A stretch of 64,000 nt of DNA from a virus. The DNA lies in the IMG/VR virus record IMGVR_UViG_3300042539_001764, positions 4,094-68,093 of that record; one strand, written 5' to 3'. Positions 10,325-52,221 of this stretch are shown one piece after another. How positions within the stretch are numbered: position 1 is the stretch's first letter; every line of letters starts with the position of its first letter. The position numbers and the translations under genes are program-made. The notes under the pieces are model-generated. The model was not told the DNA's origin, did not search any database, and saw only the letters and a program-made list of their open reading frames with translations.

Positions 10325-11179
10325 ATGACAACCACTGTCTCAAGCCTTTGGAGCGCCTTCGTCGAAGAGCGCTCCATTTCTTTGTGTCCAACCAGCCTCA
10401 CTTCTGATTACAAACAAGTCAGTAAATGGCTGAATCGCTGTCCCATTCAAGACATTAACGATGCAAGAAAAGTGATGATTTGGGCGTTAGGAGAAAAGCC
10501 AGTACTCACTTCCAGGCGTGTAGCAATGTATATAAAGAGCATGTACCGATGGGCTGCGCAAGAAGACGTGGCCATTGTTGCTCGCAATCCGTTGGCAAGT
10601 TTTAAAATACCAAAGGCGCCACAACGCGAAGAGGAAATTGTTGTCATCCCTCGCAATGAGACGGCATTGGTTCTTGCCGCGCTAGAAGCCAAGCTCACCT
10701 ATCGAAATGTTAACTGGGCTTCGTACACGGAATTTATGCTTCAAACCGCAATGCGAACTGGTGAGGTGAGGGCAGCGAAATGGGACGACATCAAGGAGGG
10801 CAAGCTTTTGGTTCATCAAAACTATACTCTTACTCATGGACTAAAAAATAGTACAAAAACAAACAAACGTCGCTGGGTGCCTTTGAATAATCGTTGCCAA
10901 GAAATTCTTGCTGAGCTTCCTCGCGAAAATGAATTCATCTTCCCATGGAATCGACTAGCTTTTCAAAGCTATTTCAGAAAAAAGCTTTCGCCATTGCACG
11001 AAGCAGGATTGATTTCTCACGTTTATAGGCCTTACGATTGCCGACACACCGCCATTAGTCGCTGGATTGAAGCTGGCATTCCTGTACCGCAAGTGGCAAA
11101 TTGGGCGGGTAATACCAGTGAAGTGATTTTTAAACACTATTGCAATAGCACGCAAGAATATGAAATGCCAGTGCTGTAA
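10325..11179 (+). CDS. Tyrosine recombinase (integrase family)
   Basis: MRTGE (catalytic R), YDCRHT (HxxR-type), WAGN and KHY (catalytic Y); 284 aa with no obvious arm-binding domain. Confidence 0.9.
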   Translation: MTTTVSSLWSAFVEERSISLCPTSLTSDYKQVSKWLNRCPIQDINDARKVMIWALGEKPVLTSRRVAMYIKSMYRWAAQEDVAIVARNPLASFKIPKAPQREEEIVVIPRNETALVLAALEAKLTYRNVNWASYTEFMLQTAMRTGEVRAAKWDDIKEGKLLVHQNYTLTHGLKNSTKTNKRRWVPLNNRCQEILAELPRENEFIFPWNRLAFQSYFRKKLSPLHEAGLISHVYRPYDCRHTAISRWIEAGIPVPQVANWAGNTSEVIFKHYCNSTQEYEMPVL

Positions 11180-23574: not shown

Positions 23575-25602
23575 ATGGCCTTTTCCATCCTCGACCACCT
23601 CGCCAAGCTGGAGCCGAGCGACCATCCTGGTAAATACATCTGCCCTGCCTGCGGAGGGAACGATCTGTCAGTAAACGAGAAAAATGGCGCATATAACTGT
23701 TTCAATGACGACAGCGCGAAGCATCGCGCCGAAATTCGCAACATCCTTGCTCCATTGGAACGCTGGGAACGCCCGATGCGGGAACCTGGCTCCTATGTTT
23801 TCGTCTACCAGAACCGTGATAAAGAAGAAGTAATTAACGTTATCAGGGACGATTCTTCTGGTAAGAAAAGCATCCGGCAGGATTATCCAACCATTCCCAA
23901 AGACAGTGGCAAGCGGAAAGCCGCTATTGATCAACTGCGCAAGAATATCCTCCCATATCGATATTACGATGCCATTGAAGCATCAGAAACCACAGGCCTT
24001 CCCATTTTTGTCGTTGAAGGCGAACTCACTTGTGACAGGCTCTGGGAAATCGGTCTGCCTTCTATCACGTTTCTTGGTGGTAGCGGCCAATACCGCGCCA
24101 ACGGTGACTATTCGCAGCTTTTTCGCGGCAAGAAAGTAGTTCTTTGTCCAGATCGCGATGAGCCTGGCATTGATTTAATGAAAGAAGTGGCGTCAGATAA
24201 CCCTGGCGCACAATGGCTCTACGCAGATCCGGACAACTTTGAATGGAAAAGTCTTCCTCAAAAAGGAGGCTACGATCTTGCCGACTGGCTAGACGATGGC
24301 GCAGATTATGAAACCATTCTTTCCTCCATCGTTTCAAAAGACAGGCACGAAGGAAAAGATGGCATTCCATCGTTTGAAGAAATTATTTCAACGCTGGAAC
24401 GCATGGTTGGGCTTTATGGCAACGATGCTCGCATTGCTTTTGAAGCTCGCCAATGGATGGAAAGCCATGGCGTCAAGCTAAATGCTCAAGAAACTGAAAA
24501 GCTTTTGCAAGAGGCTCGCGGGCGTGTGCATGGCCGTGAAGAGCTTGAAATTCTTGATGCCAAGTCCATAGCACAGTCTGAAGATTCCCGCAAGTGGACG
24601 ATTGCTGGCATTCTTCCAGAAAGCAGCGTCATGCTTTTAGCTGCTGCTCCTGGCAGCGGCAAATCAACAATTCTTTACAACTGGGCTCTGCACGTCGCCA
24701 CTGGTAAAGACTGGAGCAACCGTCGTTGCAAGAAAGGGAAAGTGCTGGTCATTCAATGCGACGAGCCTGTTGTTGATGCTGCAGAAAAGCTGCAGATTAT
24801 TGGTTACGACGACGAAGAGCTTGCCAATGGTCAGATTGATTTTATTGATCGCTGGCGTTTCAACAATATCCCTCAGCTTCTATCTTATGTACAGCGTCAC
24901 CATCCCCAGCTCATCATGATCGATAGTCTTACTTCCTGCCTCGCCGGCATGGACGTAGATCTAATTCGCTCTGATGCTGGTAATTGCATCTACGAGCTTC
25001 GCGATATTGCCAATCAATATGGCTGCTCCATTGTCATCCTTCATCACTTAAACAAAAGCGGTGGCATTCGTGATAGTTCCAGCTTTGAAGCCAATGTTAG
25101 TGAAGTGGTGAAGCTTTATCGCACTGATAATAATCCTGATTCCACTCAGTTCATGATGGAATGGACAAAGAGCAGAAGTGGCTTAGCCGGTAAGCATTTT
25201 ATGCAGCGTGATCCTGCCACGTATGGCTGGTATTACAAAGGCCCTGCTGCTGGCGGTAATGAGGCTCTTGACAATTTGGTCAATATGATTAACTCGCGCA
25301 AACACGAGCGTTTTGATCGCAACGCTGCTGCCGCAGCTTCTGGCGCATGGGACCGTACTACTGTTGGCCGTCTGTTGGAAGTGGCTCGCCGTCAAGGCTT
25401 AATTGCAACAAGCTTTATTGTTGGTCCCAATGGAGAGCGGACGCGGATGTATCAAAGCTGGGCTTATGAAGAGCCTAATCTTGATTTTCAAAGCAAGTCA
25501 ATTGAAATTCCCGTTCAGGAACAAGCCACGCAAGAAGAGTCTGTTTCCATGGTGATAAATGAAAATCTTCCCGAAGGGGAAGACGATGATGAATGGTTCT
25601 AA
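23575..25602 (+). CDS. DNA primase-helicase (Zn finger, TOPRIM, RepA/AAA_25 helicase)
   Basis: CPACGG...YNCF; VVEGE; PDRDEPG; Walker A AAPGSGKS; IMIDSL; ILHHLNK. Confidence 0.9.
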   Translation: MAFSILDHLAKLEPSDHPGKYICPACGGNDLSVNEKNGAYNCFNDDSAKHRAEIRNILAPLERWERPMREPGSYVFVYQNRDKEEVINVIRDDSSGKKSIRQDYPTIPKDSGKRKAAIDQLRKNILPYRYYDAIEASETTGLPIFVVEGELTCDRLWEIGLPSITFLGGSGQYRANGDYSQLFRGKKVVLCPDRDEPGIDLMKEVASDNPGAQWLYADPDNFEWKSLPQKGGYDLADWLDDGADYETILSSIVSKDRHEGKDGIPSFEEIISTLERMVGLYGNDARIAFEARQWMESHGVKLNAQETEKLLQEARGRVHGREELEILDAKSIAQSEDSRKWTIAGILPESSVMLLAAAPGSGKSTILYNWALHVATGKDWSNRRCKKGKVLVIQCDEPVVDAAEKLQIIGYDDEELANGQIDFIDRWRFNNIPQLLSYVQRHHPQLIMIDSLTSCLAGMDVDLIRSDAGNCIYELRDIANQYGCSIVILHHLNKSGGIRDSSSFEANVSEVVKLYRTDNNPDSTQFMMEWTKSRSGLAGKHFMQRDPATYGWYYKGPAAGGNEALDNLVNMINSRKHERFDRNAAAAASGAWDRTTVGRLLEVARRQGLIATSFIVGPNGERTRMYQSWAYEEPNLDFQSKSIEIPVQEQATQEESVSMVINENLPEGEDDDEWF

Positions 25603-27044: not shown

Positions 27045-27788
27045 ATGCCGCGTCCTGAAATTGAATTTACCACGCCTGAAGAAGAAGAGGCTTACGCAAG
27101 GAAGGCTTTAATTAAAGCAGGTGTTCCTGAAAGCCAATATGAAGCAGTAAGGAACTATGGCAATGGTAATGGCGTGGTTTATGCCAAGGAAATGCTTGGC
27201 GTGAGGCGATGGATGGTGCAAGAATTATTGGCTGCTTCAATGAGCAATCGCCAGATTGCGAATGTTCTAAAGCTAAGCAAAGAAACAGTTAATGCCGATC
27301 GCCATTTCAACAGAGCTTTATATACGCAAGAAATCCTGAAGAATCAAGATACGCACAGGGCGCGTCTCTTGAAAGAACAAATGGATCTTAAAGACTTGGC
27401 GCTTGATAGCTTTGAGAAAAGTAAGCGCAAGAAAGTTATCACCATTATGGACGGTGGTGACGATGGCGGGAAAGAAATGGTGAAGCTAGAAGAAAGTGCT
27501 GGTGATCCATCGTTCTTGAACGTGGCGAAAAACTCGCTGGTAGAGCAAGCAAAGCTGCTCGGTCTCAACGAGATCAAGCAAGTCGAAAGCCAAGACACCT
27601 CCTATCGGAAGTTCCTCAAAGACCTTTCCACCACCATTGAAAAAGAAAAAGAATCTAAAGCTACTGACGAACGGCGCAGCAACTCGCTATTGGCATCTGC
27701 TGAAACCATTAGCTTTGACCCGGAGCCTGAAAACGAGCCCCTTCCTGAAACCATGCCTTTAGAAACAATTAATCATGATGACTATTGA
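27045..27788 (+). CDS. HTH protein, candidate terminase small subunit
   Basis: HTH (MSNRQIANVLKLSKETV), helical core and GDP.FL...QAKLLGL motif common in TerS-like proteins. Confidence 0.55.
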   Translation: MPRPEIEFTTPEEEEAYARKALIKAGVPESQYEAVRNYGNGNGVVYAKEMLGVRRWMVQELLAASMSNRQIANVLKLSKETVNADRHFNRALYTQEILKNQDTHRARLLKEQMDLKDLALDSFEKSKRKKVITIMDGGDDGGKEMVKLEESAGDPSFLNVAKNSLVEQAKLLGLNEIKQVESQDTSYRKFLKDLSTTIEKEKESKATDERRSNSLLASAETISFDPEPENEPLPETMPLETINHDDY

Positions 27789-28597: not shown

Positions 28598-29020
28598 ATG
28601 GACCTTCAGCTCTCTTTTATGGAAGAGCATTCCCTTCCTCGCATGGTACACATTTGCATTCCTCCGCAAATCCAAAAGGAAGTGGAGGCGTTGGCAATGG
28701 AAAATCCGCCCATCCATCCAGCATGGTGCAAAGCTCAAAAGCGTGGTAGGCATTTTGTCATCGCCACCAACGACCTTGACGACATTACGGAACTGGCTGA
28801 CTTTGCTCGTACTAACATCGAAGAGCCTGAAGAGCCAATGAGCAAGCCGAAGCGCCAGGCTTATCAAATCCTGCTGGACAGAGCATTCAGGCATGCCCAT
28901 CTGGAGCCTATGGGCACCTGTCATGCCATTGCTACCAAATGGCGAGACAAGCCCTTGCCATGCCAGAAGAACCTTAGTATTGCCACACAGGCTTTACGGC
29001 AGCCAGTCAGGCCTTTGTAA
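28598..29020 (+). CDS. Hypothetical protein
   Basis: 140 aa. Confidence 0.55.
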   Translation: MDLQLSFMEEHSLPRMVHICIPPQIQKEVEALAMENPPIHPAWCKAQKRGRHFVIATNDLDDITELADFARTNIEEPEEPMSKPKRQAYQILLDRAFRHAHLEPMGTCHAIATKWRDKPLPCQKNLSIATQALRQPVRPL

Positions 29021-29086
29021 CGATTTATGAATGGCCCCTTGATAGGGGCCTTTTTACTGGCACAATAAGCGAAGCAACGGCGAACG

Positions 29087-29443
29087 TTGCTAGTCCTCCG
29101 CTTTTCCACCGTGACCGTCAGATTCAACCATTTATTGCCAGGGCAGCCCGTTTCTGCGTTTAAAGACGGAGAATTGGCCATGAGCTTTGGGCAGCCCATG
29201 GTTTCTCGCTCCTTTTCCATGGCAGATTTGCAAGAATATATTTGCACTCTTGAAAAGGCCATTGAAGAAGAGCCTAATGTTGTACAACAACTAGCTCTTG
29301 ATCGTATTCGTTGTGCCTTTGTTGTAAGCCTGGACATTCTCAAGGAAAACCATGAGGAACTCTGCAAAGAAGCTCCTAGTGGCGCAGATTTTGAGGAATA
29401 TTTATTTTCTTATGCGCGTGCCATCAAAGGAGGAGCTCTTTGA
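29087..29443 (+). CDS. Hypothetical early protein
   Basis: Downstream of the promoter at 29014; likely GTG start near 29110. Confidence 0.5.
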   Translation: MLVLRFSTVTVRFNHLLPGQPVSAFKDGELAMSFGQPMVSRSFSMADLQEYICTLEKAIEEEPNVVQQLALDRIRCAFVVSLDILKENHEELCKEAPSGADFEEYLFSYARAIKGGAL

Positions 29444-29646
29444 TCATGGGATTTATTAAGAACCGTGAAGCAATTCGTGATTATGGCTACATTGAGCTTG
29501 GTATTGATTTTGGCAGGCGGATTACTGCTGAAGAAATCTTTGCCTTTGTAGAAGAAATTAGGGACAAAGTGGAAGGGCAAGCTGGCATTGATTATGCCGT
29601 AAGCTTGAAGACTATTGAACTTGACCATCCGCATAACTTGTCATGA
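29440..29646 (+). CDS. Hypothetical protein
   Basis: 68 aa, coupled to the upstream gene. Confidence 0.5.
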   Translation: MIMGFIKNREAIRDYGYIELGIDFGRRITAEEIFAFVEEIRDKVEGQAGIDYAVSLKTIELDHPHNLS

Positions 29647-29810
29647 TGGATGGAAATTATTTCGAGAATGATCCTTCTCTTGATTGGGAACAGGAAAAAC
29701 GCAGCTCTCGCCGTCTTGCAAGAGAAATGCTTGAACGTCGTTTAGCGTACTGGCGAGAAAAGCAAGAGCAGCTTTATTTAGAAATGTATCGTTCCGCCAC
29801 GAGTATTTAA
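29643..29810 (+). CDS. Hypothetical protein (55 aa)
   Basis: Manual translation; ATGA overlap. Confidence 0.45.
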   Translation: MMDGNYFENDPSLDWEQEKRSSRRLAREMLERRLAYWREKQEQLYLEMYRSATSI

Positions 29811-29813
29811 TTT

Positions 29814-30032
29814 TTGACAATGGAAAACAAAGAAATCATTCATCTTGCATACGAATATGCAGATTCATTTACAAGTGGCTTTATATTTAGCGAGGATAAT
29901 TTAATTGATTTTGCGAAGGCAATTTTAAATTATTCTGCAGCAATAAAGCCCCAGCCTTTTTATAAAGACGAATTCACTGAAAGCTACATTAAAGAGCTAG
30001 CAAGTTCTACACACTACGAGGTTCAACAATGA
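29814..30032 (+). CDS. Hypothetical protein
   Basis: 72 aa; IDFAKAIL motif. Confidence 0.5.
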   Translation: MTMENKEIIHLAYEYADSFTSGFIFSEDNLIDFAKAILNYSAAIKPQPFYKDEFTESYIKELASSTHYEVQQ

Positions 30033-30148
30033 CTCAAGAACACCCAATTACTCCGCCGCCTGAGCTACTCCGTCAGTGGCGCACGGACGCACAAGAGGTT
30101 TTGCCGAGTGATTCTTACTTTTACATCGCCACCCAAGCCGCCCGATGA
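30029..30148 (+). CDS. Short, possibly truncated protein MTQEHPITPPPELL... (39 aa)
   Basis: Manual translation; ATGA overlaps on both sides. Confidence 0.45.
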   Translation: MTQEHPITPPPELLRQWRTDAQEVLPSDSYFYIATQAAR

Positions 30149-30663
30149 CTGATTACACAGCAACGACCGATCAATGGGCCGACACGGAGCATTGGGCTCG
30201 GCACAACGGCAACGCTCAAGCTTGCATCCTTGAACTCCGCGCCAGAATCGAGGTGCTAGAAAATGCGGCTCAGAAGCACATCGTCGAAACCACTTCAAAC
30301 ATTCTTGCCTTATTTGGACGGGTTGAATCGTTAGAAGCTGCTGAACGCCAAACATCAACGGTCCACCAGATCAGCAAACCTCTGAAACTTACTGCAAAGC
30401 AGCAGGCAGAGTTAAAAGCATTGCTGACGCCCGATTTTAGGGTTGGCATGACGCCAACTTCTACTTCAAGCCAAGTTGGTAGTTCGCTAGTGGATGAGGT
30501 AGCCCGTGCCATTGGTCGAGACGATGAACCCATCAACTGGGAGGAAGAAGCCCGCGCTGCGATCCGCACGGTTGCCTTGTGGCTTAACGAAGCTCCGTTG
30601 CATCTTTACCCCGGTGATCGCGGCACCATTGTCAATACTCTTTATGACCAAGCGAATCAATGA
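30145..30663 (+). CDS. Hypothetical, apparently modular protein
   Basis: 172 aa; CILELRARIEVLE coiled segment plus EARAAIR.VA.WL segment. Confidence 0.6.
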   Translation: MTDYTATTDQWADTEHWARHNGNAQACILELRARIEVLENAAQKHIVETTSNILALFGRVESLEAAERQTSTVHQISKPLKLTAKQQAELKALLTPDFRVGMTPTSTSSQVGSSLVDEVARAIGRDDEPINWEEEARAAIRTVALWLNEAPLHLYPGDRGTIVNTLYDQANQ

Positions 30664-30842
30664 ATGACTTCAAATTTGTGCCACTGAACAGCCTTGAGAA
30701 TCGCCTCGGTGATGCCCTCGGCCTTGCCATTGCCATGATCCGCGACCCAAGCACCGTGGACAACAAAACCATGGCTCAGATAGAAGCACCATTCAAGGAA
30801 TGGTGCGATGGTCTCGTTGATGGAGGTCTATTCAATGACTGA
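30660..30842 (+). CDS. Hypothetical protein
   Basis: 60 aa; ATGA overlap. Confidence 0.55.
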   Translation: MNDFKFVPLNSLENRLGDALGLAIAMIRDPSTVDNKTMAQIEAPFKEWCDGLVDGGLFND

Positions 30843-30892
30843 CATCTTTCCGCCGTGCTCTTGAGTCCCTGCCCGATTAGTCAACATCACTA

Positions 30893-31069
30893 ATGACTGA
30901 CCAACAAATTATCCAGGCGGCACGCGAAGCCGGTCTTTGCTTTCCAACTTGTTGGAGCTTGATAGCCCCTTGGGATCCCACCAGAGACGTCAGCGACGAG
31001 TGGGGTGGCTACGAGCAAGGACAGATGGATAAGCTGCGCCACTTTGCTGAACTGATCAAAGCCTCCTAG
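30893..31069 (+). CDS. Cassette gene (58 aa)
   Basis: ATG directly after the ACTA arm; its stop TAG is the left arm of the next site. Confidence 0.6.
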   Translation: MTDQQIIQAAREAGLCFPTCWSLIAPWDPTRDVSDEWGGYEQGQMDKLRHFAELIKAS

Positions 31070-31086
31070 TCCACCTCGCTAAGACC

Positions 31087-31296
31087 ATGACTGAACTATC
31101 TCCCGCCGCGCAGGCGGTGTTGAAAGCAGCCTGCATCCACCACGGTTTATTCAACGAAGAAATCGTGCAGCGTCGTCGTATGGTTGCCGCCGTCCTGCGG
31201 GCTGCTGCGGATCAGGTGGTCATCAAACTGGCAGGGCTTGGACAAGAAAGCGCCTGGTATCTGGAAGAGATCGCCACCGAGCTTGAAGCCCAGTAG
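31087..31296 (+). CDS. Cassette gene (69 aa)
   Basis: MTELSPAAQAVL...AAVLRAAADQV...IATELEAQ; stop TAG lies within a site. Confidence 0.65.
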   Translation: MTELSPAAQAVLKAACIHHGLFNEEIVQRRRMVAAVLRAAADQVVIKLAGLGQESAWYLEEIATELEAQ

Positions 31297-31317
31297 TCCG
31301 ATCAACTAACCACCACC

Positions 31318-31503
31318 ATGACCTTACCAACCAACAGCATTATCTTTCGCGCAGGTCGTGTCCCCGATGAAGTCATCCGCATCGACGCCGAAGGCTTCCA
31401 CTACCGAGGCCAGTTCATTGAAGATGCAGGAGAAGCCCACCGCCTGCTGGTGGAGTTTCTACGCAAGCACCAGCCAGATACTGACTGGAAACACGCCAAG
31501 TAG
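31318..31503 (+). CDS. Cassette gene (61 aa)
   Basis: EGFHYRGQFIEDAGEAHRL; stop TAG lies within a site. Confidence 0.65.
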   Translation: MTLPTNSIIFRAGRVPDEVIRIDAEGFHYRGQFIEDAGEAHRLLVEFLRKHQPDTDWKHAK

Positions 31504-31573
31504 TCAGACCCACCTCTAGCTTTTTGCTAATTATCAGGATTTCCAATAAACGCCATTTATCAGGATTCTTGAT

Positions 31574-31600
31574 AAGGCCCCTTAAGGGGCCTTATTATTT
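31574..31600 (+). terminator. Hairpin terminator closing the cassette array
   Basis: AAGGCCCC-TTAA-GGGGCCTT-ATTATTT. Confidence 0.6.
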
Positions 31601-31789
31601 GTCCAAACCGTATCACCTGGCAATGGTTCAAGACCTACGTTCCAAGTATCAAAATCATCTTCGTTGCGAGGATCGTAAACTTCCCCGCTCGCCATCCATC
31701 GCTTAAGCCTTTCCCTTTCCTGCTCCGCAGAAAGCTTCATGATCGGCTAGCTCTGTATTGCCCGAGTCTAGCTAGCCCCGTATAAGCAA

Positions 31790-31996
31790 AAGAAAAGGGG
31801 CCTTGCGGCCCCCTCTCTTTACACCCTCCGATACCTCGCTTTCCCTTCAGTTACATAGGGAGATGACGCGCCTCGCGGGAGACCATGCCTAGCTCCCTGG
31901 CTAAGCCATACGGCTTTGCCCGCATCATCAGAAGTGTCCACCCTCACGGCTCGCCCGAAGACGAGAGCAGCAATTAAGCCGCTAGGACCGAGTGCT
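31790..31996 (-). ncRNA. Candidate stand-alone structured ncRNA (~200 nt)
   Basis: Own extended -10 (TGtTATGAT, 32010-32002), multiple stems including a UUCG loop, own terminator, no ORF in the track. Confidence 0.65.
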
Positions 31997-32107
31997 CAGA
32001 AATCATAACACGCCAGGTCCGTTCGGCAGCTCCCTGGAAATTCATGGCACAATGGGCATTGCGCTTCCAGAGATGGTTGCGCCCTCGCTAGCTCTCTCTC
32101 CTTCTTA

Positions 32108-32458
32108 ATGAAACGACTTTTTCTTTCCTTCCTGCTGCTCTGCCCCTTATCAGTGCAGGCAGCAACGCTCCAATGTGGCCGTGCATCTCACTACGGCATT
32201 GGCGATGGCTATCACGGGCAACGTGCTGCTAATGGTTCCCGCTTTGATGCCTATGCCCTCACTGCTGCCCACCCCTGGCTTCCATTTGGCACGAAAGTGC
32301 TTGTAAAGAACCGTAACAATGGAAAGGCCGTGGCGGTGACAATCACTGATAGAGGCCCTTACGCTCATGGGCGCATCCTCGATCTGTCTTACGGCAGCTT
32401 CTCTCGCATTGCTTCCCCTTCCCAAGGCGAAGCTTCCATCTGCATTTCCAAACTATGA
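32108..32458 (+). CDS. RlpA-like lytic transglycosylase (DPBB domain) with signal peptide
   Basis: G.AS.YG...ANG..FD...LTAAH..LPFGT...V.V.ITDRGP....RILDLS. Confidence 0.88.
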   Translation: MKRLFLSFLLLCPLSVQAATLQCGRASHYGIGDGYHGQRAANGSRFDAYALTAAHPWLPFGTKVLVKNRNNGKAVAVTITDRGPYAHGRILDLSYGSFSRIASPSQGEASICISKL

Positions 32459-32643
32459 AAGACGCTGCTTCGTTCCTGCTGGTGAGCATGGTCTTCGGAC
32501 TTGGTGCTTTCGCCATTGCTGCAGCCCCTCATGTGCAGCCAAACAAGGCAGGCCTTGACAAGTGCATGCAGCTTCACCCCGAACGCTACTGTCGCATTGC
32601 TAACGGCTTCCCCGTACCAAGGTTTGACACCCAGGCTAAATAG
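32455..32643 (+). CDS. Small membrane/secreted protein
   Basis: TM segment followed by C..LHPERYC. Confidence 0.5.
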   Translation: MKDAASFLLVSMVFGLGAFAIAAAPHVQPNKAGLDKCMQLHPERYCRIANGFPVPRFDTQAK

Positions 32644-32723
32644 CTCTATTATCCCCTCGGAATGTTCGCAAGGCCCTTCGGGGCCTGCTTCTTTCTTCGA
32701 TCCTCCGCTGGCGACAGCTCCTC

Positions 32724-33137
32724 ATGACTACCACCACCAAATCATCAGGGCATTTTCGCATCACGCAGAAAGCCCAAGAGCATCTCGGTCTGCAAGTGCT
32801 AAACGTGCTTCAGCACGTTGTAGTGATTCGCACTAACAAAGGCCCTCGTTTCGTCTCTCGCAAATACTATTTCGATGCATGGGAGATCGCCCAGCGTCGT
32901 TCACGCGCTCGTGGTTGCATCGCCCAGAAAAATGGCGAGCATTCCTGGCTGGTGTTTGATCCGCACACTGATAGCGATCACCACATTGTCATTCAGCATG
33001 GCATGAACACTGGCAAAGCTGGATATTATTCTTGCACTTGTGCTGATGCCTATTTTCAGCATGAGCGTGGCATTGAAGCTGATGCCATTCAATGCAAGCA
33101 CATCATTGCGGCTCAAATGTGGATGGAAAGGGCATGA
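32724..33137 (+). CDS. SWIM zinc-finger protein
   Basis: CTCAD...CKHI. Confidence 0.7.
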   Translation: MTTTTKSSGHFRITQKAQEHLGLQVLNVLQHVVVIRTNKGPRFVSRKYYFDAWEIAQRRSRARGCIAQKNGEHSWLVFDPHTDSDHHIVIQHGMNTGKAGYYSCTCADAYFQHERGIEADAIQCKHIIAAQMWMERA

Positions 33138-33349
33138 TGCGCTGGTTTCGTCGTCCCAATAGAAAGTCTGTCATTTCCAACAAAACTCGCGTGCTGTTGT
33201 CTCAGCATTTACGCCCAGAAGGAAGGCCGGTAGCAGAAGCCTTAATGGAAGAAGATGGCGTAATGCTTGAGCGTCTCTTTAATTACATTGGTGATCTGGA
33301 AGGTCGCATTAAAAGTCTGTCAATTTACATTCACTCTCGCAATCTTTGA
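33092..33349 (+). CDS. Hypothetical protein
   Basis: Likely start near 33134 (MMRWF...). Confidence 0.45.
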   Translation: MQAHHCGSNVDGKGMMRWFRRPNRKSVISNKTRVLLSQHLRPEGRPVAEALMEEDGVMLERLFNYIGDLEGRIKSLSIYIHSRNL

Positions 33350-33352
33350 ACC

Positions 33353-33559
33353 ATGCCTCTCACAACCACGCAACAGGCTATTGCCAGAATGGTTTCTGAC
33401 AATGCGAAGCACAAATGGAAAACTTACGATGCAAATGATCGCGCTTCTGCTCGCAGCTTCATTCTTTCTCGCATTGATAAACCCTCTTATAAAAGCAAGA
33501 AAGACTTACTCCTGACGCTTGCTGATGCCTTGCAAGATGAAATTTGGAAAGTGCTCTAG
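33353..33559 (+). CDS. Hypothetical protein
   Basis: 68 aa. Confidence 0.55.
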   Translation: MPLTTTQQAIARMVSDNAKHKWKTYDANDRASARSFILSRIDKPSYKSKKDLLLTLADALQDEIWKVL

Positions 33560-33750
33560 TGGCGCTTAAAGACAATAGGCGACAATTATTTGCGCTCGTT
33601 GAAAAGCATGGCTTTGCCTTGCATCGTCAAGGAAAGCATTATATTTTCAAGCATTTTTCAGGCAAAATGCTAGTGTGTAGCAAAAGCACAACAGACTGGC
33701 GAAGCTTAAAGAATGTAGAGCGTGATATTAAGCGAATCTTGTCTTTGTAA
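33559..33750 (+). CDS. HicA-like protein
   Basis: GF.L.RQGKH.IFKH..G...V.SKS..D.R..KN....IKR. Confidence 0.65.
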   Translation: MALKDNRRQLFALVEKHGFALHRQGKHYIFKHFSGKMLVCSKSTTDWRSLKNVERDIKRILSL

Positions 33751-33836
33751 CGTTTTATAACAAGGGGCCAACAAGGCCCCTTTCTCGTGTATTGTTGCAA
33801 GGTCTTCGGCAGCGATGCCGCCCTCCATTAAGCACC

Positions 33837-34010
33837 ATGGAATTTCTTCCGATTAAGCGTTCTTCACGAACTGGTAAAAGCGGCAGGTTTATTCGTTGCC
33901 CTCATTGCGGCCACATTGAGCTCGTGCATCATTTTGCATGGTCTGCACTTTCTTGCTCTAATTGCAACGCAATGGTTTCTAAGTTTGATTACACAATGGA
34001 GAGCAAGTGA
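33837..34010 (+). CDS. Zinc-ribbon protein
   Basis: CPHC...HFAWSAL.CSNC; start reassigned downstream of the promoter. Confidence 0.65.
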   Translation: MEFLPIKRSSRTGKSGRFIRCPHCGHIELVHHFAWSALSCSNCNAMVSKFDYTMESK

Positions 34011-34273
34011 TTATGACAACAATTCCTACCATCCATCTCAATGGCACTGGCGCCACCACGCTGCGTGATGAATACGCTGCTGCTTACGATGCCATCGGCA
34101 AGGCAGTAGATGCGTTAGTAGCAGCTACGTGCAACGCTCGCGATTTTTATCCGCAGGGCACTGATGCCTACTACAAAGCTCGTGATGAGCGTGCAGAAGC
34201 TTTCGACAAGCTTCGCCAGGCGCAACGCTATGTGGGCGAAATGCTCATGGGCATTTGCGACCAAATGCCCTGA
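34007..34273 (+). CDS. Hypothetical protein
   Basis: PTIHLNGTG...NARDFYPQG..AY..AR. Confidence 0.65.
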   Translation: MIMTTIPTIHLNGTGATTLRDEYAAAYDAIGKAVDALVAATCNARDFYPQGTDAYYKARDERAEAFDKLRQAQRYVGEMLMGICDQMP

Positions 34274-34389
34274 AGCCAGAGCTGAGCTAGGCTTCACGAG
34301 GCCTAGCTCTCACAGCGTGCTCTATCGCTGGTAACGCCCCATGAAGAAATCATTGGGAGCCCATATCCTACAGTATTTCTTAAGAAATT

Positions 34390-34590
34390 ATGCCCTTTCC
34401 CATTGGTACTCTCGTCGATCTCTACGATTTTGGCTTCAAACAATGGAGAGGAGAATACATAGTGGTGAAGCTGGGCGATAACGGCTTGCATAAGATCAAA
34501 AATACCAAGACCAATAGCCAGCAATTCGTTAAAGAAAAAGCTTTGCGCATGGGCAGGCTCGCTCCTTTTCGCATTGAGAGCCTTTATTAA
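34390..34590 (+). CDS. Hypothetical SH3-like small protein
   Basis: 66 aa, beta-rich. Confidence 0.5.
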   Translation: MPFPIGTLVDLYDFGFKQWRGEYIVVKLGDNGLHKIKNTKTNSQQFVKEKALRMGRLAPFRIESLY

Positions 34591-34677
34591 GCTGTGTAAC
34601 AGGCCTCGATAGAGGCCCTGCCATGCTGTATTGTTCTTCCCACAGGCGGAGACGCCTCCTCTAACCAACCATCCACC

Positions 34678-35064
34678 ATGACTGCCATCGCTCCCCCTCT
34701 CCAGGGCACCATCCTTCAGCCCGGCACCATACTCTCCAACTCCTGGGGTTATTCCATGACCATCGTTGATTTTTATGTGGTAGTGCGTTGCACGGAGAAA
34801 ACTGCCTGGGTGCAGCAAATCCAAAGCCATGAAGTGGACAAAGGGCCTGCTGGTGGCTATGCAGTGCCCGAACTCACTCGCAAGCCATTGATGGTCTTCC
34901 AGAATCGTGCCGATGGTGAAGGTGGTGAGCTAGTGGTGGCTCCGATTAAGAGCTTTCGCATCAGGAAAGACACCGATGGCACTGAATGGCTGTGGAACAG
35001 CAAACTTCAGCGCTCCATGCGCATCTGGAGCGGCAAGCAGATCTACAGCAACCACTGGGACTGA
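34678..35064 (+). CDS. Hypothetical early protein
   Basis: G.IL..SWGY.MT.VDFY.VV motif; downstream of a promoter. Confidence 0.7.
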   Translation: MTAIAPPLQGTILQPGTILSNSWGYSMTIVDFYVVVRCTEKTAWVQQIQSHEVDKGPAGGYAVPELTRKPLMVFQNRADGEGGELVVAPIKSFRIRKDTDGTEWLWNSKLQRSMRIWSGKQIYSNHWD

Positions 35065-35171
35065 TCTTTGTAACGAAATATTTCAATGCAGGAGCGGGGC
35101 CGAAAGGCCCTGCTTTGTCGTGCTGTATAGTTCTCTCATGAGCGGCGACGCTCTTCCTTCGCTTTCCTTCC

Positions 35172-35552
35172 ATGGCAATCATTAACCACTCTGTCGAGCA
35201 GCTCACCGGCCCCGGTTACTGGACCAAATTTGAAGGGCTTGAGCGCGTGAAGCTCACTATTACTGTGCCCTCCTGGCACGAGCCCTTCCCTTCTCAACAA
35301 AGAGCAGGAGCTGAAGATCCTCGCTCTCTTGAGCTACACGGCCTCCTCCACGTTTGCCAAACTTGGTACATCAATGGTCCCGTGATGGATCAATGGACCA
35401 TCAGCACTATGTGGGGGCCAATCAAGGTGCCTGCTGGCACTCGCATTGTTTCGGAGCCCCTGCCTGAGAAGTGGGCAGCATGGGAGCAGGAGGCCAGTGA
35501 AGGCACCAAGCAATGGTGGGCCTATTCCAACGGACGCACGGCCTTCTGTTAA
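35172..35552 (+). CDS. Hypothetical early protein
   Basis: 126 aa; downstream of a promoter. Confidence 0.65.
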   Translation: MAIINHSVEQLTGPGYWTKFEGLERVKLTITVPSWHEPFPSQQRAGAEDPRSLELHGLLHVCQTWYINGPVMDQWTISTMWGPIKVPAGTRIVSEPLPEKWAAWEQEASEGTKQWWAYSNGRTAFC

Positions 35553-35635
35553 GCATTGTTACAACGGGGCCGATTACGGCCCCCTTCAGACTATTGTTTT
35601 TCCATGAGGCGCGAGCCTCTCTCGCTTTTAAAACC

Positions 35636-35845
35636 ATGATCCTCAACGAAACCCAAGCAAAAGCACTGCAGCTCGTCGCTAACGCTGAGCTACGCACGCC
35701 AGAACAAATGCTTTCTCTTCTCCTCGCAGAAGGCATTCGATTTTATTTTTGTGACTACGAAAGCCCGTTCGGTCACGTAGATCTTGATGCAGACGCAGTT
35801 GAAAGACTTCTTCGTGCAGACGCCATGCGTTGCGTACAGGGCTAA
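35636..35845 (+). CDS. Hypothetical early protein
   Basis: Start reassigned downstream of the promoter. Confidence 0.55.
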   Translation: MILNETQAKALQLVANAELRTPEQMLSLLLAEGIRFYFCDYESPFGHVDLDADAVERLLRADAMRCVQG

Positions 35846-35865
35846 TTCAATTCTTCCTTAAAACA

Positions 35866-36045
35866 ATGCACACTTACTCCGTTACCATTGAACACCGCTA
35901 CGGTGGCATTTACAAAAACTGGCAAACTATCAACTTGGATGCCACTAGCGAAGAAGAAGCAAAAAAGCTTGCAGAATATCGCTTCCCTGAATGTTGGGAC
36001 GTAGAAGCAATCCGCGCCATCCGCCACGAATGGGCTGCACTATGA
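35866..36045 (+). CDS. Hypothetical protein
   Basis: A.SEEEAKKLA motif. Confidence 0.55.
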   Translation: MHTYSVTIEHRYGGIYKNWQTINLDATSEEEAKKLAEYRFPECWDVEAIRAIRHEWAAL

Positions 36046-36278
36046 CAGCTCTACAGTCTGGGCTCACTATCAATCAACGCAATCTTCTGCTCTACTATTT
36101 AAACCACAAGAAAAAGCATGGCGATAAACCATGCCATGTGCCAAGATTTCCTTCGCAAGTTAGTCGGTTTTCTGACTACTTGAGAGCGATGGAAAGGCTA
36201 GAGGAGCGCAAATTGCTTTGCATAGAACGGAATTCTGAAGATTATCTTTCCTGGACCATCGTTGACGCCGAATCATGA
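36042..36278 (+). CDS. Hypothetical, winged-helix-like protein
   Basis: LT.NQRNLL.Y...AMERLEERKLL. Confidence 0.5.
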   Translation: MTALQSGLTINQRNLLLYYLNHKKKHGDKPCHVPRFPSQVSRFSDYLRAMERLEERKLLCIERNSEDYLSWTIVDAES

Positions 36279-36577
36279 TCACCACCATCAAGACTTACCA
36301 AGACAACGGCCCATATTTCTCCTGCACCAAGGGCAGCTACCAGGCCGCTTCGCTGCAGCAGCTCATCTTCCACGTGAGACAGGCGATGGAAGACCGTGAG
36401 CACATCATTGGCATCTATGGGCCCGATGGCTCCTGCAGGGGCGTCTGGCAGCTTGATATCGAAGGGCACGTAGACAGTGCTGGCGATACCATCGTTGACC
36501 ATGAAGCCTATGAGCTGCTAAGGCCCTCGACTAAAAGCAGATGGACGTGGGACTTCCTACAAAGGCAACTGGCTTAA
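36275..36577 (+). CDS. Hypothetical protein
   Basis: 100 aa; ATGA overlap. Confidence 0.55.
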   Translation: MITTIKTYQDNGPYFSCTKGSYQAASLQQLIFHVRQAMEDREHIIGIYGPDGSCRGVWQLDIEGHVDSAGDTIVDHEAYELLRPSTKSRWTWDFLQRQLA

Positions 36578-36713
36578 TTGCAGGAGCATCTTGGATGCTC
36601 CCTTCCTGAACCTTGTTCAGGCATTGTTTCGCTTTGTTAACAAGGGGCCTCCAGGCCCCTTTCTGCTGTATTGTTGGTTCACGAGGCGCGAGCCTCTCCT
36701 CTGCTTTCTCACC

Positions 36714-36968
36714 ATGGAATTCCTTGTTAATACTGGCGGTCTGCTCATCAAGCACGATGAAGAGCAGCTTATTTCCCTCATCGCTCAGTTCATCAACGAA
36801 GGCAAGCCTGGCTCTGGCTTTTTCGTGCAAGGCGTAGCCTGCATTGCTAAGCACGAAGATGGCCAGATGATGATGGGCCGCAAAATAGAAACGCTCAGCC
36901 GCCTTTTCAATAAAACCAGCGACGATATCATGCACACGGTTAAGTGCTGGGCATCAGAGGCTGTTTAA
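36714..36968 (+). CDS. Hypothetical early protein
   Basis: Start reassigned downstream of the promoter. Confidence 0.55.
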   Translation: MEFLVNTGGLLIKHDEEQLISLIAQFINEGKPGSGFFVQGVACIAKHEDGQMMMGRKIETLSRLFNKTSDDIMHTVKCWASEAV

Positions 36969-37015
36969 TTAAGCAAAGGGGCGCCCCAAAGCGCCCCGTT
37001 CTCTTCTTTAAAACC

Positions 37016-37174
37016 ATGATTCTCATTGATTTCTTTGATGAAGCCTCCTGCAAAGGCACTGAACTCATTGAAGGCTGGTATTTCTACGATGATGCAGATG
37101 ATTCCGTAGTAGGCGGGCCGTTTTCCAATGAAGAAGCTGCCATAAAGGCGGCGTTTGATGGACACGGCTGGTGA
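37016..37174 (+). CDS. Hypothetical protein
   Basis: GWYF...GGPF..EEAA..AA. Confidence 0.6.
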   Translation: MILIDFFDEASCKGTELIEGWYFYDDADDSVVGGPFSNEEAAIKAAFDGHGW

Positions 37175-37179
37175 TGTAT

Positions 37180-37250
37180 AGTGGATCCGGCTGGAAGCGT
37201 ATAGGGTCTGGCTAGCTCCGTATCTAGGGTCCGGCTAGGGGCGTATCCTG
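37180..37250 (+). repeat. Three tandem GGCT(A/G)G-N3-CGTAT units
   Basis: Seen directly; similar units at 31745-31785. Confidence 0.65.
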
Positions 37251-37256
37251 GGAGGT

Positions 37257-37491
37257 GGTACATGTGTACTTCTTGAAAATGAGAACCATTCTCAATAGTA
37301 CATTTGTACTATATAAGCAAAACTTATCATTCCGGGCCGAACGATAAGCTGGGCTTATCATATAAGCTCCCCTTATGGGACCCTCGCCCTCCCATAAGCT
37401 GGGCTTATCAGTGGTGCGGATAGTACGTCTGCACTTGTGCCAATCCGCAGGTGGCACACAGCCTCTCGTGATATTGAAAATCATTCTCAAT
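37257..37491. promoter_or_regulatory. Dense cluster of palindromic operator-like boxes (LexA-, Fur- and LysR-like)
   Basis: Ten boxes in 235 bp; listed in the findings. Confidence 0.7.
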
Positions 37492-37514
37492 AACGCGGCA
37501 TTGCGTCTTGCCCG

Positions 37515-37590
37515 TATCACGCTTGCGTTGTTTGCACTATCACGCTTGCGTTGTTTATCGTTCTGCGCTTGCGTTGTTTGCATTATCACA
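37515..37590 (+). repeat. Three direct repeats of CGCTTGCGTTGTTT
   Basis: Seen directly. Confidence 0.75.
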
Positions 37591-37882
37591 ATGCCGTTAT
37601 GCGATGGCCTGATTGCCTGATTGTTACGGATTGTTTCAACCGTTGACTTTTGGCGCGTCATGCTGTATTTCGCGCAGGTGTGCGCGTTTCGTTCTTTATT
37701 TGCTCGCATCTGGCTGTTTGTCGGTGCCCGTACCATCGCAGTCCCCATGGCGTCAAGGCAACGCCGCGTTATGGTGGCCGCTTTGCTAGGTGGCCACATT
37801 GGCGGGCCGTTGCGCGGTTTGGCGGTGGTATGCTTTGCACATCGGACGGAGAGATCCACCGATGCTCCCGCAATCCCCCATC

Positions 37883-38265: not shown

Positions 38266-39177
38266 ATGCCTACCGTTCTGAATTCTCGCGCTAAGCTTCC
38301 CTCTGATTTGGCTTCAATGTCGCAACAATATAAGATCAGCTACCGTGATCTGCTGAGCGTTAATCCTAAGACTGAGAAAAGCAAGGTGCAAACATACATT
38401 CTGCACCTTGCGCCCGACAATACCAGCGGCGTTAATGTTTGCCCCGGTGCTGGCAATTGTCGCAAAATCTGTTTGCATTTTGCAGGCAATCCAGTTTATA
38501 TGACAAACAAACAGGCAGCCAGAATTCGCCGGACGCTAGCATTCGCCGCCGATAAACAGCGATTCGCCCGCCTCATTGTTTGCGCGATTCTCTCCAAGCT
38601 AAACAAACATTCAGGCGAACCTATTGCAATCCGTCTTAACGGTACGTCGGATATTGCGTGGGAGAATGTAGATTTTAACGTGACGCCAGAATTTGCTACA
38701 TTCTGCCGCACAAAATTTGGCTACTTTCTGCCAACGGGCACCCGCAATATTTTTGAAATTTTCAACAATATTCGCGCAAATTATGGGGCTGTGGTTATTT
38801 TCTATGACTACACAAAAATTAAGCGCAACTGGGAGGAATGTGCGCGGATTGGTTACCATCTCACCTTCAGTTTCGACGGATGGAAAAATCTCCAGAATCT
38901 TAAAATCTGCCGGGATGCTCTACGCGCTGGCGTTAATGTGGCGGCCGCGTTCAACCTTAAAAAGGGGCAAGAATTGCCCCATTATGTAGACTGTTCGCGT
39001 TTTGATTTCCTCCCTAGCGATAAAGTGACTGGGCGCGTGTTTGCCGTTCTGGATGGCGACCTGACAGATTTTCGCCCGTCAGATATAGGCGGCGGCCACA
39101 TCGTAGGCTTAAGGTTCAAGCTACCCCACGGCATTAACTACACTGACGCTGATAAAAAGGCGTTCTGCATCGCATGA
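38266..39177 (+). CDS. Gp88-family protein (Cys cluster, radical-SAM-like)
   Basis: LHLAP...CP....C...CL..AG; ARIRRT; IRLNGTSD; FYDYTK; YHLTFS; DGD..D.R; IVGL.FK. Confidence 0.75.
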   Translation: MPTVLNSRAKLPSDLASMSQQYKISYRDLLSVNPKTEKSKVQTYILHLAPDNTSGVNVCPGAGNCRKICLHFAGNPVYMTNKQAARIRRTLAFAADKQRFARLIVCAILSKLNKHSGEPIAIRLNGTSDIAWENVDFNVTPEFATFCRTKFGYFLPTGTRNIFEIFNNIRANYGAVVIFYDYTKIKRNWEECARIGYHLTFSFDGWKNLQNLKICRDALRAGVNVAAAFNLKKGQELPHYVDCSRFDFLPSDKVTGRVFAVLDGDLTDFRPSDIGGGHIVGLRFKLPHGINYTDADKKAFCIA

Positions 39178-39433: not shown

Positions 39434-39618
39434 CCTAGAAGCCCGCACAAGCCCGCACAAGCAAAGCCCGCTAGCACTCCCCCTAGCGGGCTTTTAACGT
39501 GCCATAAAAGCTCGCAGGATGGCCGCATGATGGGAGCCGATAGAGTCGGCAGAATCTAGAAAGTGCGGGAATCTAGGGAGCATCAGCATTGTTACAGTTT
39601 GAGACAATGCCGAAAATC

Positions 39619-39652
39619 ATTACAAAGTGTTAAAATTGTATCCGTTGCTACA
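39619..39652. promoter_or_regulatory. Adjacent HLR1-like repeat and NtcA-like box
   Basis: ATTACAAA-gt-GTTAAAAT (39619-39636), then TGTA-N8-TACA (39637-39652). Confidence 0.55.
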
Positions 39653-45251: not shown

Positions 45252-45272
45252 GATAGTTCCCGATGATGCTGG

Positions 45273-45320
45273 CCCCGTTCCGTGCCAGCGAGTCATGCGC
45301 CCCTTACGGGGTGAACGTAC
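45273..45320 (-). promoter_or_regulatory. Glutamine-II (Downstream-peptide) riboswitch
   Basis: CGTTCA-CCCC-GTAA-GGGG-CGCA...CTG...GGAACGGG; extended -10 TGcTACACT just upstream. Confidence 0.8.
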
Positions 45321-45336
45321 CAACAGTGTAGCAAAG

Positions 45337-45410
45337 TACCCTCAGTGGGATTTGAACCCACACTGAAGCGATTTTAAGTCGCTTGCCTCTTCCGATTGGG
45401 CTACGAGGGC
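45337..45410 (-). tRNA. trnL: tRNA-Leu(UAA), short variable arm, CCA not encoded
   Basis: GCCCTCG/TGAGGGT-A acceptor; AGCGA-CT-TAA-AA-TCGCT anticodon arm; GTGGG-TTCAAAT-CCCAC T arm. Confidence 0.9.
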
Positions 45411-51494: not shown

Positions 51495-52221
51495 CGCTAT
51501 CGGCTGGAAGGATGAAGAAGAGCATGACATTTTGAGCGCTAATGCAGGCGCTTTTAATTTTATTGAGATTGTCCCTTCTCGTATCTTCGCGAGAAATGAA
51601 GATTTTGGTGATATTGCAAAACGCTATCGAGAGCACTATGGACTTTGGGCTTATTCTGCCCAGGCATTATTTTATGACAGCAGCGTGCAAAGTTTTGAAG
51701 ATACGGCTGCCACTCAAGAACATTTATTGCGCATTGTAAAGCTCGGTTCTCTTATGGGAATCAAGCGTTTTGTACTTGGCAGTCCTGCTTTACGAAGAGG
51801 AAGTCCATCATGTCTTATGGAAGTTTTGAAGCGAATGGACAGCGTGTTGGATGCGAACGATGCCATCCTTTGTATTGAGCCAATCGCCAAAGCCTTTGGA
51901 GGTAAATATTTTTATACAGTCGAAGAGATTGTCAATCATATTGACTTCTACAACTTGCATCATGTAAAGACAATGCTTGACACAAATAATGCATGGCTGC
52001 AAGGCGACAGTCCAAGGAAGATTATCAAGAATTATTTTCGCTTTATTGCTCATGTACATATCAGCGATACAGACAATGGTCCCATTTTGAATCAATATGA
52101 GCACAGGCAGATCAAACTGTTTCTTGATTCAAGCAGCTATCAATATGGCATCACGAGGGAACTGGTCAATGTCAACCAGCACCATCGAGAATACCCACTA
52201 TTTAGGCGGCTTTATGGTTGA
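51481..52221 (+). CDS. Sugar-phosphate isomerase/epimerase (TIM barrel)
   Basis: IS.IGW, E..P, V.GSP..R, CIEP, LDT, H.HIS. Confidence 0.75.
   Translation: MLGISAIGWKDEEEHDILSANAGAFNFIEIVPSRIFARNEDFGDIAKRYREHYGLWAYSAQALFYDSSVQSFEDTAATQEHLLRIVKLGSLMGIKRFVLGSPALRRGSPSCLMEVLKRMDSVLDANDAILCIEPIAKAFGGKYFYTVEEIVNHIDFYNLHHVKTMLDTNNAWLQGDSPRKIIKNYFRFIAHVHISDTDNGPILNQYEHRQIKLFLDSSSYQYGITRELVNVNQHHREYPLFRRLYG

Follow-up and report, generated by a model that had tools for sequence, protein, structure and literature searches.

The stretch considered here, hereafter the window, comprises 64,000 nucleotides (nt) of viral DNA, bases 4094-68093 of the IMG/VR record IMGVR_UViG_3300042539_001764 (68,093 bases in total, estimated to be 95% complete). 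It holds a run of small open reading frames (ORFs) and a GP88-like gene, and promoter-like sites within and directly after this run carry a direct repeat resembling HLR1, the element bound by the cyanobacterial regulator RpaB. HLR1 is defined as (G/T)TTACA(T/A)(T/A)-N2, repeated (Riediger et al. 2019, PMC6525291), and the phage repeats read as its reverse complement. A sequence-only reading of the window had named seven such repeats, and all seven were found where it had placed them, on the + strand, each as a pair of 8-nt direct repeats 2 nt apart (10-bp period). The features of this region are listed below, with scores in bits from the matrix described further on, distances from the repeat end to the -10 hexamer, and folding energies with their z values; every 5'-leader hairpin listed shows covariation in relatives.

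28.6-37.2 kb, + strand: run of small unannotated ORFs (PHROGs/Pfam)
29014..29031, + strand: HLR1-like direct repeat 1, TTTGTAAC GA TTTATGAA; 17.8 bits
29033..29050, + strand: GC hairpin then TTTTT, terminator-like; -15.2 kcal/mol, z -5.1
33744..33761, + strand: HLR1-like direct repeat 2, TTTGTAAC GT TTTATAAC; 20.8 bits; 28 nt to TATTGT
33762..33795, + strand: hairpin AAGGGGCC-AACAA-GGCCCCTT, T/C-rich run and -10 TATTGT (33790-33795); -15.0 kcal/mol, z -4.8
33807..33820, + strand: 5'-leader hairpin CGGCA-GCGA-TGCCG; ORF ATG at 33837
34583..34600, + strand: HLR1-like direct repeat 3, TTTATTAA GC TGTGTAAC; 17.2 bits; 28 nt to TATTGT
34602..34634, + strand: hairpin GGCCTC-GATA-GAGGCC and -10 TATTGT (34629-34634); -12.2 kcal/mol, z -2.6
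34644..34657, + strand: 5'-leader hairpin AGGCG-GAGA-CGCCT; ORF start at 34678
35067..35084, + strand: HLR1-like repeat 4 (outlier), TTTGTAAC GA AATATTTC; 12.2 bits; 41 nt to TATAGT
35088..35131, + strand: long GC hairpin with core GGGGCC-GAAA-GGCCC and -10 TATAGT (35126-35131); -23.3 kcal/mol, z -4.7
35140..35153, + strand: 5'-leader hairpin GAGCG-GCGA-CGCTC; ORF start at 35172
35545..35562, + strand: HLR1-like direct repeat 5, TCTGTTAA GC ATTGTTAC; 25.7 bits; 29 nt to TATTGT
35566..35597, + strand: hairpin GGGGCCG-ATTA-CGGCCCC and -10 TATTGT (35592-35597); -15.6 kcal/mol, z -4.7
35606..35619, + strand: 5'-leader hairpin GAGGC-GCGA-GCCTC; ORF ATG at 35636
36623..36640, + strand: HLR1-like direct repeat 6, ATTGTTTC GC TTTGTTAA; 21.0 bits; 28 nt to TATTGT
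36642..36674, + strand: hairpin AAGGGGCC-TCCA-GGCCCCTT, then TTTCTGCTG and -10 TATTGT (36669-36674); -15.1 kcal/mol, z -3.9
36683..36696, + strand: 5'-leader hairpin GAGGC-GCGA-GCCTC; ORF ATG at 36714
37620..37637, + strand: HLR1-like direct repeat 7, without hairpin, ATTGTTAC GG ATTGTTTC; 17.7 bits; 28 nt to TATTTC
37643..37671, + strand: conventional promoter core TTGACT-17-TATTTC, starting 5 nt after repeat 37620
38266-39177: GP88-like gene (PHROGs/Pfam)

The distance of 28-29 nt between repeat and -10 that had been claimed is found at six of the seven sites, the exception being 35067 with 41 nt; this repeat has a weak proximal half and a register offset of -13, and is thus weak in both spacing and score, while its layout recurs at L004:6468 and L035:5176 among the related loci. 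The description of the -10 as mostly TATTGT-like holds for four sites with TATTGT and for TATAGT at 35067, but the hexamers CACAAT at 29014 (29 nt from the repeat end, 29061-29066) and TATTTC at 37620 are poor. Homologous sites of repeat 29014 are present at L004:875, L014:2512 and L035:129, the 18-mer of repeat 35545 is found unchanged in several relatives, and sites homologous to 37620 lie upstream of the GP88-like gene in relatives. The stop codon of ORF 28598-29020 falls inside the first half-site of repeat 29014. The small ORF at 33544-33750 (+), which has a weak HicA-toxin-like Pfam match (23 bits, below the cut-off), has its stop codon inside repeat 33744.

The comparison with relatives was based on 35 related viral loci (404,781 bp), anchored by the GP88-like protein at 59-89% identity. 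When cassettes were collected by an anchor independent of the repeat (GC hairpin then TATNNT), 45 were obtained on the + strand. Each of the 41 distinct ones has the repeat with its 10-bp period, and the register agrees to within 1 nt in 39 of the 41 (the exceptions are window 35067 and its L004 counterpart). Aligned on the -10, the 41 cassettes give the consensus wTTGT(T22/A11/G8)A(A24/C17)G-n-wTTGT(T23/A11/G6)AC, and it can be seen from the column counts that letters at position i recur at i+10. A matrix built only from the 36 sites outside the window gave six of the window repeats 17-26 bits, and only 35067 less, at 12.2. In the whole phage record, 7 matches of at least 13 bits were obtained on the + strand and 0 on the - strand, with 0.97 +/- 0.94 expected from 200 shuffles; the seventh genome match is at 51723, inside an ORF. 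At the same threshold the 35 loci have 122 matches on the gene (+) strand vs 7 on the opposite strand. A TAnnnT hexamer 27-31 nt past the repeat accompanies 64 of the 113 distinct + strand matches (149 of 2000 random positions), at 28-29 nt in 61 of the 64 and as TATTGT in 47, and a hairpin follows the motif in 71 of the 113 (225 of 2000 random positions).

A strict 18-mer with GC spacer, searched across the collection, gave 60 viral loci, 24 of them with the full cassette. Nine of the 60 matches (L101, L106, L112, L115, L117, L125, L133, L137 and L139, all from IMG/VR) belong to a different viral sequence family, in which a perfect pair ATTGTAACGCATTGTAAC is followed by repeated TTGCCCCTTT units, without hairpin or TATTGT; this family may represent another use of the HLR1-like site in other viruses. 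Palindromes of the NtcA (GTA-N8-TAC) and CRP type were dropped by eye because the second half does not fit.

The GC hairpin that had been described over the -35 region of six sites is confirmed at six of the seven (37620 is without it), between the repeat and the -10, with folding energies of -12 to -23 kcal/mol and z of -2.6 to -5.1. Its stems vary in sequence while the pairing is kept (GGGGCC/GGCCCC, GGCCCCG-GAAA-CGGGGCC, GGCCTC-GATA-GAGGCC and others), with T/C-rich runs after them. Judging from its sequence, the hairpin likely serves as a terminator; the terminator scan was passed by the 29033 hairpin only, and in the others the T/C-rich run behind the stem has fewer than 5 T in 8. RNAalifold did not call this first hairpin on the MAFFT alignment of the relatives, where the various stem types are offset from one another, and it was judged per sequence, not by alignment. 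For the second hairpin, said to follow just after the predicted start at several sites, the picture is divided: covariation in relatives supports it, with compensatory changes at 5 of 5 pairs and a loop that is often GCGA or GAGA, but the single-sequence energy does not (z -0.7 to -2.7). The leaders are C/T-rich, have ACCATG at their end and are without a Shine-Dalgarno sequence. Rfam holds no family for either hairpin, and its matches in the window are only a tRNA and a glutamine-II riboswitch, both elsewhere.

Hairpin types and leader types assort independently among the relatives (alignment A1), which is the outcome expected from recombination at the cassette. On this ground it could be proposed that there is no regulator at all, and that the cassette is a mobile recombination module like the PeSL (promoter-early stem-loop), its T-rich repeat being an UP-element-like contact for polymerase or homology kept by recombination. 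PeSLs shuffle small genes in T4-type phages as composite terminator/promoter motifs (PMC4122927), a given phage hairpin type precedes different leaders and a given leader follows different hairpins, and at four of the seven window sites the ORF upstream has its stop codon within the first half-site. We nevertheless find this explanation hardly probable, since variation runs freely in hairpin and spacer but spares the TGT-A cores, the 10-bp period and the -10, and since the repeat is retained in promoters without a hairpin. Additionally, we know of no UP element with a G/T-specific 10-bp repeat.

In relatives there are promoters with a TTGAC -35 in place of the hairpin, where the repeat lies 5 nt before the -35 in an unchanged register, and in the window the repeat of the 37620 promoter is in the register to the -10 that the hairpin cassettes have. 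Therefore, the repeat is positioned relative to the polymerase and not to the hairpin.

Not every promoter of the small-gene region uses an HLR1-like site: the sigma-70 promoter at 32624-32652 (+), TTGACA-17-TATTAT, is close to consensus and has a leader hairpin, but no repeat lies upstream of it. At 31524-31600 a different direct repeat, TTATCAGGATT, occurs twice, about 26 nt apart, before a promoter-like site TTGATA-18-TATTAT, with a bidirectional hairpin AAGGCCCCTTAAGGGGCCTT after the repeat. Upstream of the seventh site, the non-coding stretch 37175-37620 is dense in repeats: a unit with a 23-bp period (CGCTTGCGTTGTTT...) and the palindrome ATAAGCnnnnCTTATCA occur four times each, and TGAAAAT..CATTCTCAATA occurs twice. 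This stretch could be an origin or a region of regulatory switching; at the homologous place relatives have an extra HLR1-like repeat (TATGTTTCGTTTTGTTAC). Downstream of the terminator of the GP88 operon there are a near-palindromic ATTGTTACAGTTTGAGACAAT at 39588-39608 and, at 39619-39636, an HLR1-like pair that runs the other way (canonical forward), while in relatives the place equivalent to 39588-39640 (+1100 to +1600 from the GP88 start) has a + oriented repeat.

If transcription is assumed to start 7 nt after the -10, the predicted span of the phage repeat is -58..-41, with its centre at about -49.5. HLR1 sites that activate are centred at -66 to -45 and those that repress at -38 to +23 (PMC6525291). 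Among the 12 'act' promoters examined in Table S3 of that paper, 8 have their site at -59..-42 or -58..-41, on either strand, and the HLR1 of psaA P2 is on the reverse strand, as in the phage. The placement at -58 to -41 given by the sequence-only reading thus equals, with the predicted start assumed, the commonest span of RpaB-activated Synechocystis promoters. Activation requires RpaB to be bound and phosphorylated, and high light or thiol reduction removes it (2026 review, PMC13421787).

As for the host, the GP88-like gene has a single match in the species-genome collection, on a 1.5-kb contig of the metagenome-assembled genome (MAG) 'MAG: Synechococcus sp.'. The RpaB model NF045944 scores above its curated cut-off in 15 of 16 sampled genomes of the genus of this MAG; in the MAG itself (1.4 Mb) a search for RpaB with NF045944 found none. 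The hli genes are classic RpaB targets in model strains (PMC6525291; PMC13421787). When the phage matrix was applied to 94.5 kb around hli genes of three host-genus genomes, every match of at least 9 bits was 19-47 nt upstream of a 47-amino-acid (aa) hli ORF, and these sites, often tandem pairs, read towards the gene as canonical HLR1. Two features that the published HLR1 consensus does not require are common to host and phage sites, namely a G following the first half-site (as read in the phage) and A, T or G at position six; in terms of the half-site (G/T)TTACA(T/A)(T/A), the third base is A, T or C in the phage and similarly loose at the host hli sites. The pattern TGTDAMGNNNTGTDAM gave 8 matches in the three genomes (8.6 Mb) vs 2 for the reversed control, and 5 of the 8 adjoin hli. 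Counted without any matrix, KTHACA half-sites amount to 0.031 per nt in the 60 nt before hli ORFs vs 0.0006 in the background, with 10 nt as their commonest spacing. Another conserved host site, TGTGACGCGGTGTGAC, is found 28 nt upstream of a 229-232-aa ORF in two genomes (L077 of G005 and L082 of G006, position 1501), and this ORF might also belong to the host regulon.

Taking the position, the strand and the host sites together, we lean towards activator-dependent promoters that use the RpaB of the host and are packaged as PeSL-like terminator-promoter cassettes, a reading drawn from sequence and analogy which we hold to be somewhat more probable than its opposite. Each unit would be a compact terminator-promoter cassette before a block of small phage genes, laid out 5' to 3' as a repeat in HLR1 reverse complement, a GC hairpin, a -10 (mostly TATTGT) and a short leader opening with a small hairpin. 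The GC hairpin sits where a -35 box would be and probably terminates the transcript from upstream or makes it more stable. Since most cassettes are without a -35 box, RNA polymerase would need help, and phosphorylated host RpaB, bound at about -58 to -41, could recruit it as at the photosystem I promoters of model cyanobacteria. Transcription of the phage genes would then track the light/redox state of the host: the promoters would be active as long as phosphorylated RpaB occupies the repeat, and would shut down once high light or reducing conditions displace it. For the wiring of phage transcription to host light and redox sensing, as the sequence-only reading had put it, the HLR1-like repeat, its quirks in common with the host hli sites and the finding that the host genus encodes RpaB speak in favour, while activation of the phage promoters by RpaB is argued by analogy with model cyanobacteria.

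Several results weigh against this reading. The likeness to HLR1 holds in period and position and more loosely in the half-site, but the match to the published consensus is modest: the window sites reach 13-15 of 16, and about 19 sites per genome would score this well by chance; a scan at 13/16 or better gave a genome total of 25 vs 18.6 +/- 4.4 in shuffles, with no genome-wide excess. Only repeat 33744, the best with 15/16 (0.055 expected), stands out against the published consensus. Since the genome total at that level is not above the shuffles, the consensus match alone is unconvincing, and the significance of the window repeats comes from position, strand and conservation. The hli sites of the host have the opposite orientation to the phage sites and a repressing position. 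Upstream of psaA and psaD in the three host-genus genomes there was no matrix match of at least 9 bits, and a strict HLR1 pair with a -10 at 24-32 nt occurred there 0 times (reverse) and once (forward), and so the activating layout is undocumented natively in the presumed host lineage. The host assignment itself, from a binned contig of 1.5 kb and synteny with Synechococcus phage S-CBS4, is weak.

Further points of this kind concern which protein binds. More than half of the phage half-sites read TGTTA or TGTGA and not TGTAA, a deviation from canonical TGTAAC, and each of the 15 RpaB-bearing genomes has a second match above the RpaB cut-off (about 364 vs about 396 bits) as well as an RpaA-like match of about 200 bits. 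The binder could then be another OmpR-family regulator of the host, either the second RpaB-like protein, possibly an SrrA-like paralogue, or RpaA (clock output), and the signal could be, e.g., circadian phase. RpaA and RpaB compete at shared sites (PMC13421787). However, the half-site is equally degenerate at the hli promoters, which belong to the classic RpaB targets, and we regard a different host regulator as improbable.

The motif is confined to this phage clade. S-CBS4, which is the sole relative with a name, lacks it (the matrix gave one weak match there, of 11.2 bits) and so provides no cultured system for the motif, and most ORFs at 28.6-37.2 kb have no family match. This would also be expected if the binder were encoded by the phage and unrecognisable by sequence, as an early activator or a repressor of the small genes, with the likeness to HLR1 due to mimicry or coincidence. 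We judge such a binder to be quite improbable, as a six-frame search found no winged-helix OmpR domain (Trans_reg_C) in the phage, the sole helix-turn-helix (HTH)-like ORF (27045-27788) is shared with the motif-less S-CBS4, and a system of the phage alone would leave the motif with the same quirks at host hli genes unexplained. This ORF (+, 247 aa) has a sub-threshold GerE/LuxR-type HTH match at residues 53-84 and 62% identity to S-CBS4 gp086, whose annotation as 'Rnase E' looks doubtful.

Outside the small-gene region, assignments by PHROGs and Pfam give the phage a siphovirus layout, with tail/fibre genes, an integrase and an endolysin; nucleotide-metabolism and recombination genes are on the minus strand, and ribonucleotide reductase, terminase, portal and capsid genes are also present. 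Gene order is common to S-CBS4 and the window phage, and S-CBS4 is the only named phage with a DNA match (80% over 133 bases). The window stretch is present in lake and freshwater metagenome runs, while a run search found no RNA runs carrying it. Further features are:

10325-11179: integrase
23575-25602: primase/helicase (PHROGs/Pfam)
45268-45320, - strand: glutamine-II riboswitch aptamer (Rfam 40.9 bits, cut-off 33)

The aptamer lies directly beside a tRNA (45337-45410) at the Rfam gathering level, within 45268-45410 on the - strand. The glutamine-II class is known from cyanobacteria and marine metagenomes, and its presence in the window fits a cyanobacterial host.

The integrase bears on when the cassettes would act. 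They could be morons (promoter-gene-terminator units) expressed from a prophage under host control, and not early lytic promoters, as each unit combines a promoter of its own with a hairpin resembling a terminator. We consider this unlikely, though by no means far-fetched: a prophage copy was not found (the sole genome match is the 1.5-kb contig), and the seventh site would drive the conserved GP88-like operon. The question concerns timing only, and morons would be compatible with control by RpaB. A bolder scenario, built on the sequence, goes beyond RpaB-dependent cassettes: phosphorylated host RpaB would be obligatory for most small-gene operons in a clade of freshwater Synechococcus siphoviruses (redox gating by photosystem II), the replicating genome with its at least 7 sites per copy would titrate RpaB and thereby induce the high-light regulon of the host (hli, psbA) to the advantage of the phage, and the cassette would be a recombination module that hands light control to new genes. 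We rate this combination as rather improbable.

Compared with the RpaB-activated HLR1 of Synechocystis PCC 6803 (psaA P2, psaD, isiA, lexA; PMC6525291), the phage sites share the pair of 8-nt half-sites, the 10-bp period and a span of about -59..-42. The Synechocystis sites occur in either orientation and their promoter activity is site-dependent, whereas the phage repeat precedes small genes without assigned function, has a GC hairpin at the place of the -35, reads TGT(T/A/G)A instead of TGTAA in its half-site, and is placed relative to a predicted start. With the hli promoters of the candidate host the phage shares the half-site KT(A/T/C)ACA, the 10-nt spacing and the C/G beside the spacer, but the hli sites face the gene, lie no more than about 45 nt from the ATG (the repressing position in model strains) and have three or four half-sites.

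Borrowing of a host two-component regulator by a phage has a parallel, as Zeng and Chisholm are said to have described in 2012 Pho-box/PhoB control of cyanomyophage pstS and phoA. In that case a cyanophage likewise borrows an OmpR-family two-component regulator of its host via direct-repeat sites, but the signal is phosphate, the period is 11 bp and few auxiliary metabolic genes are concerned, whereas here a promoter architecture for many ORFs is involved. For the cassette as such, the nearest likeness is to the PeSLs of T4-type phages, which are also small stem-loop and promoter units between small variable ORFs (PMC4122927); both have signs of recombination at the cassette, in the phage from the assortment of hairpins and leaders. 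PeSLs have been described as carrying sigma-70 early promoters without a site for an activator, while the phage stem-loop lies between an activator-type repeat and the -10. By these analogies the phage cassette looks like a promoter of the RpaB-activated class in function and a PeSL-type terminator/promoter composite in architecture. Occurrences of HLR1 in cyanophage genomes have been reported (PMC6525291), and our search of the literature on HLR1/RpaB in phages and on cyanophage early promoters yielded no account of HLR1 as the basis of a recurring promoter cassette.

Cyanophage transcription depends on light and on the photosynthetic electron flow of the host, by a mechanism that Liu et al. 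2019 (PMC6628666) call unidentified. The conserved putative site for a host regulator, at a fixed spot before many phage promoters, suggests from its sequence that phage expression is tied to the photosynthetic state of the host, and offers a concrete and cheap test of how a phage would read the light state. If true, this would extend the use of host two-component regulators by cyanophages, of which PhoB is the one case known to us, beyond a few metabolic genes to a promoter design of general use.

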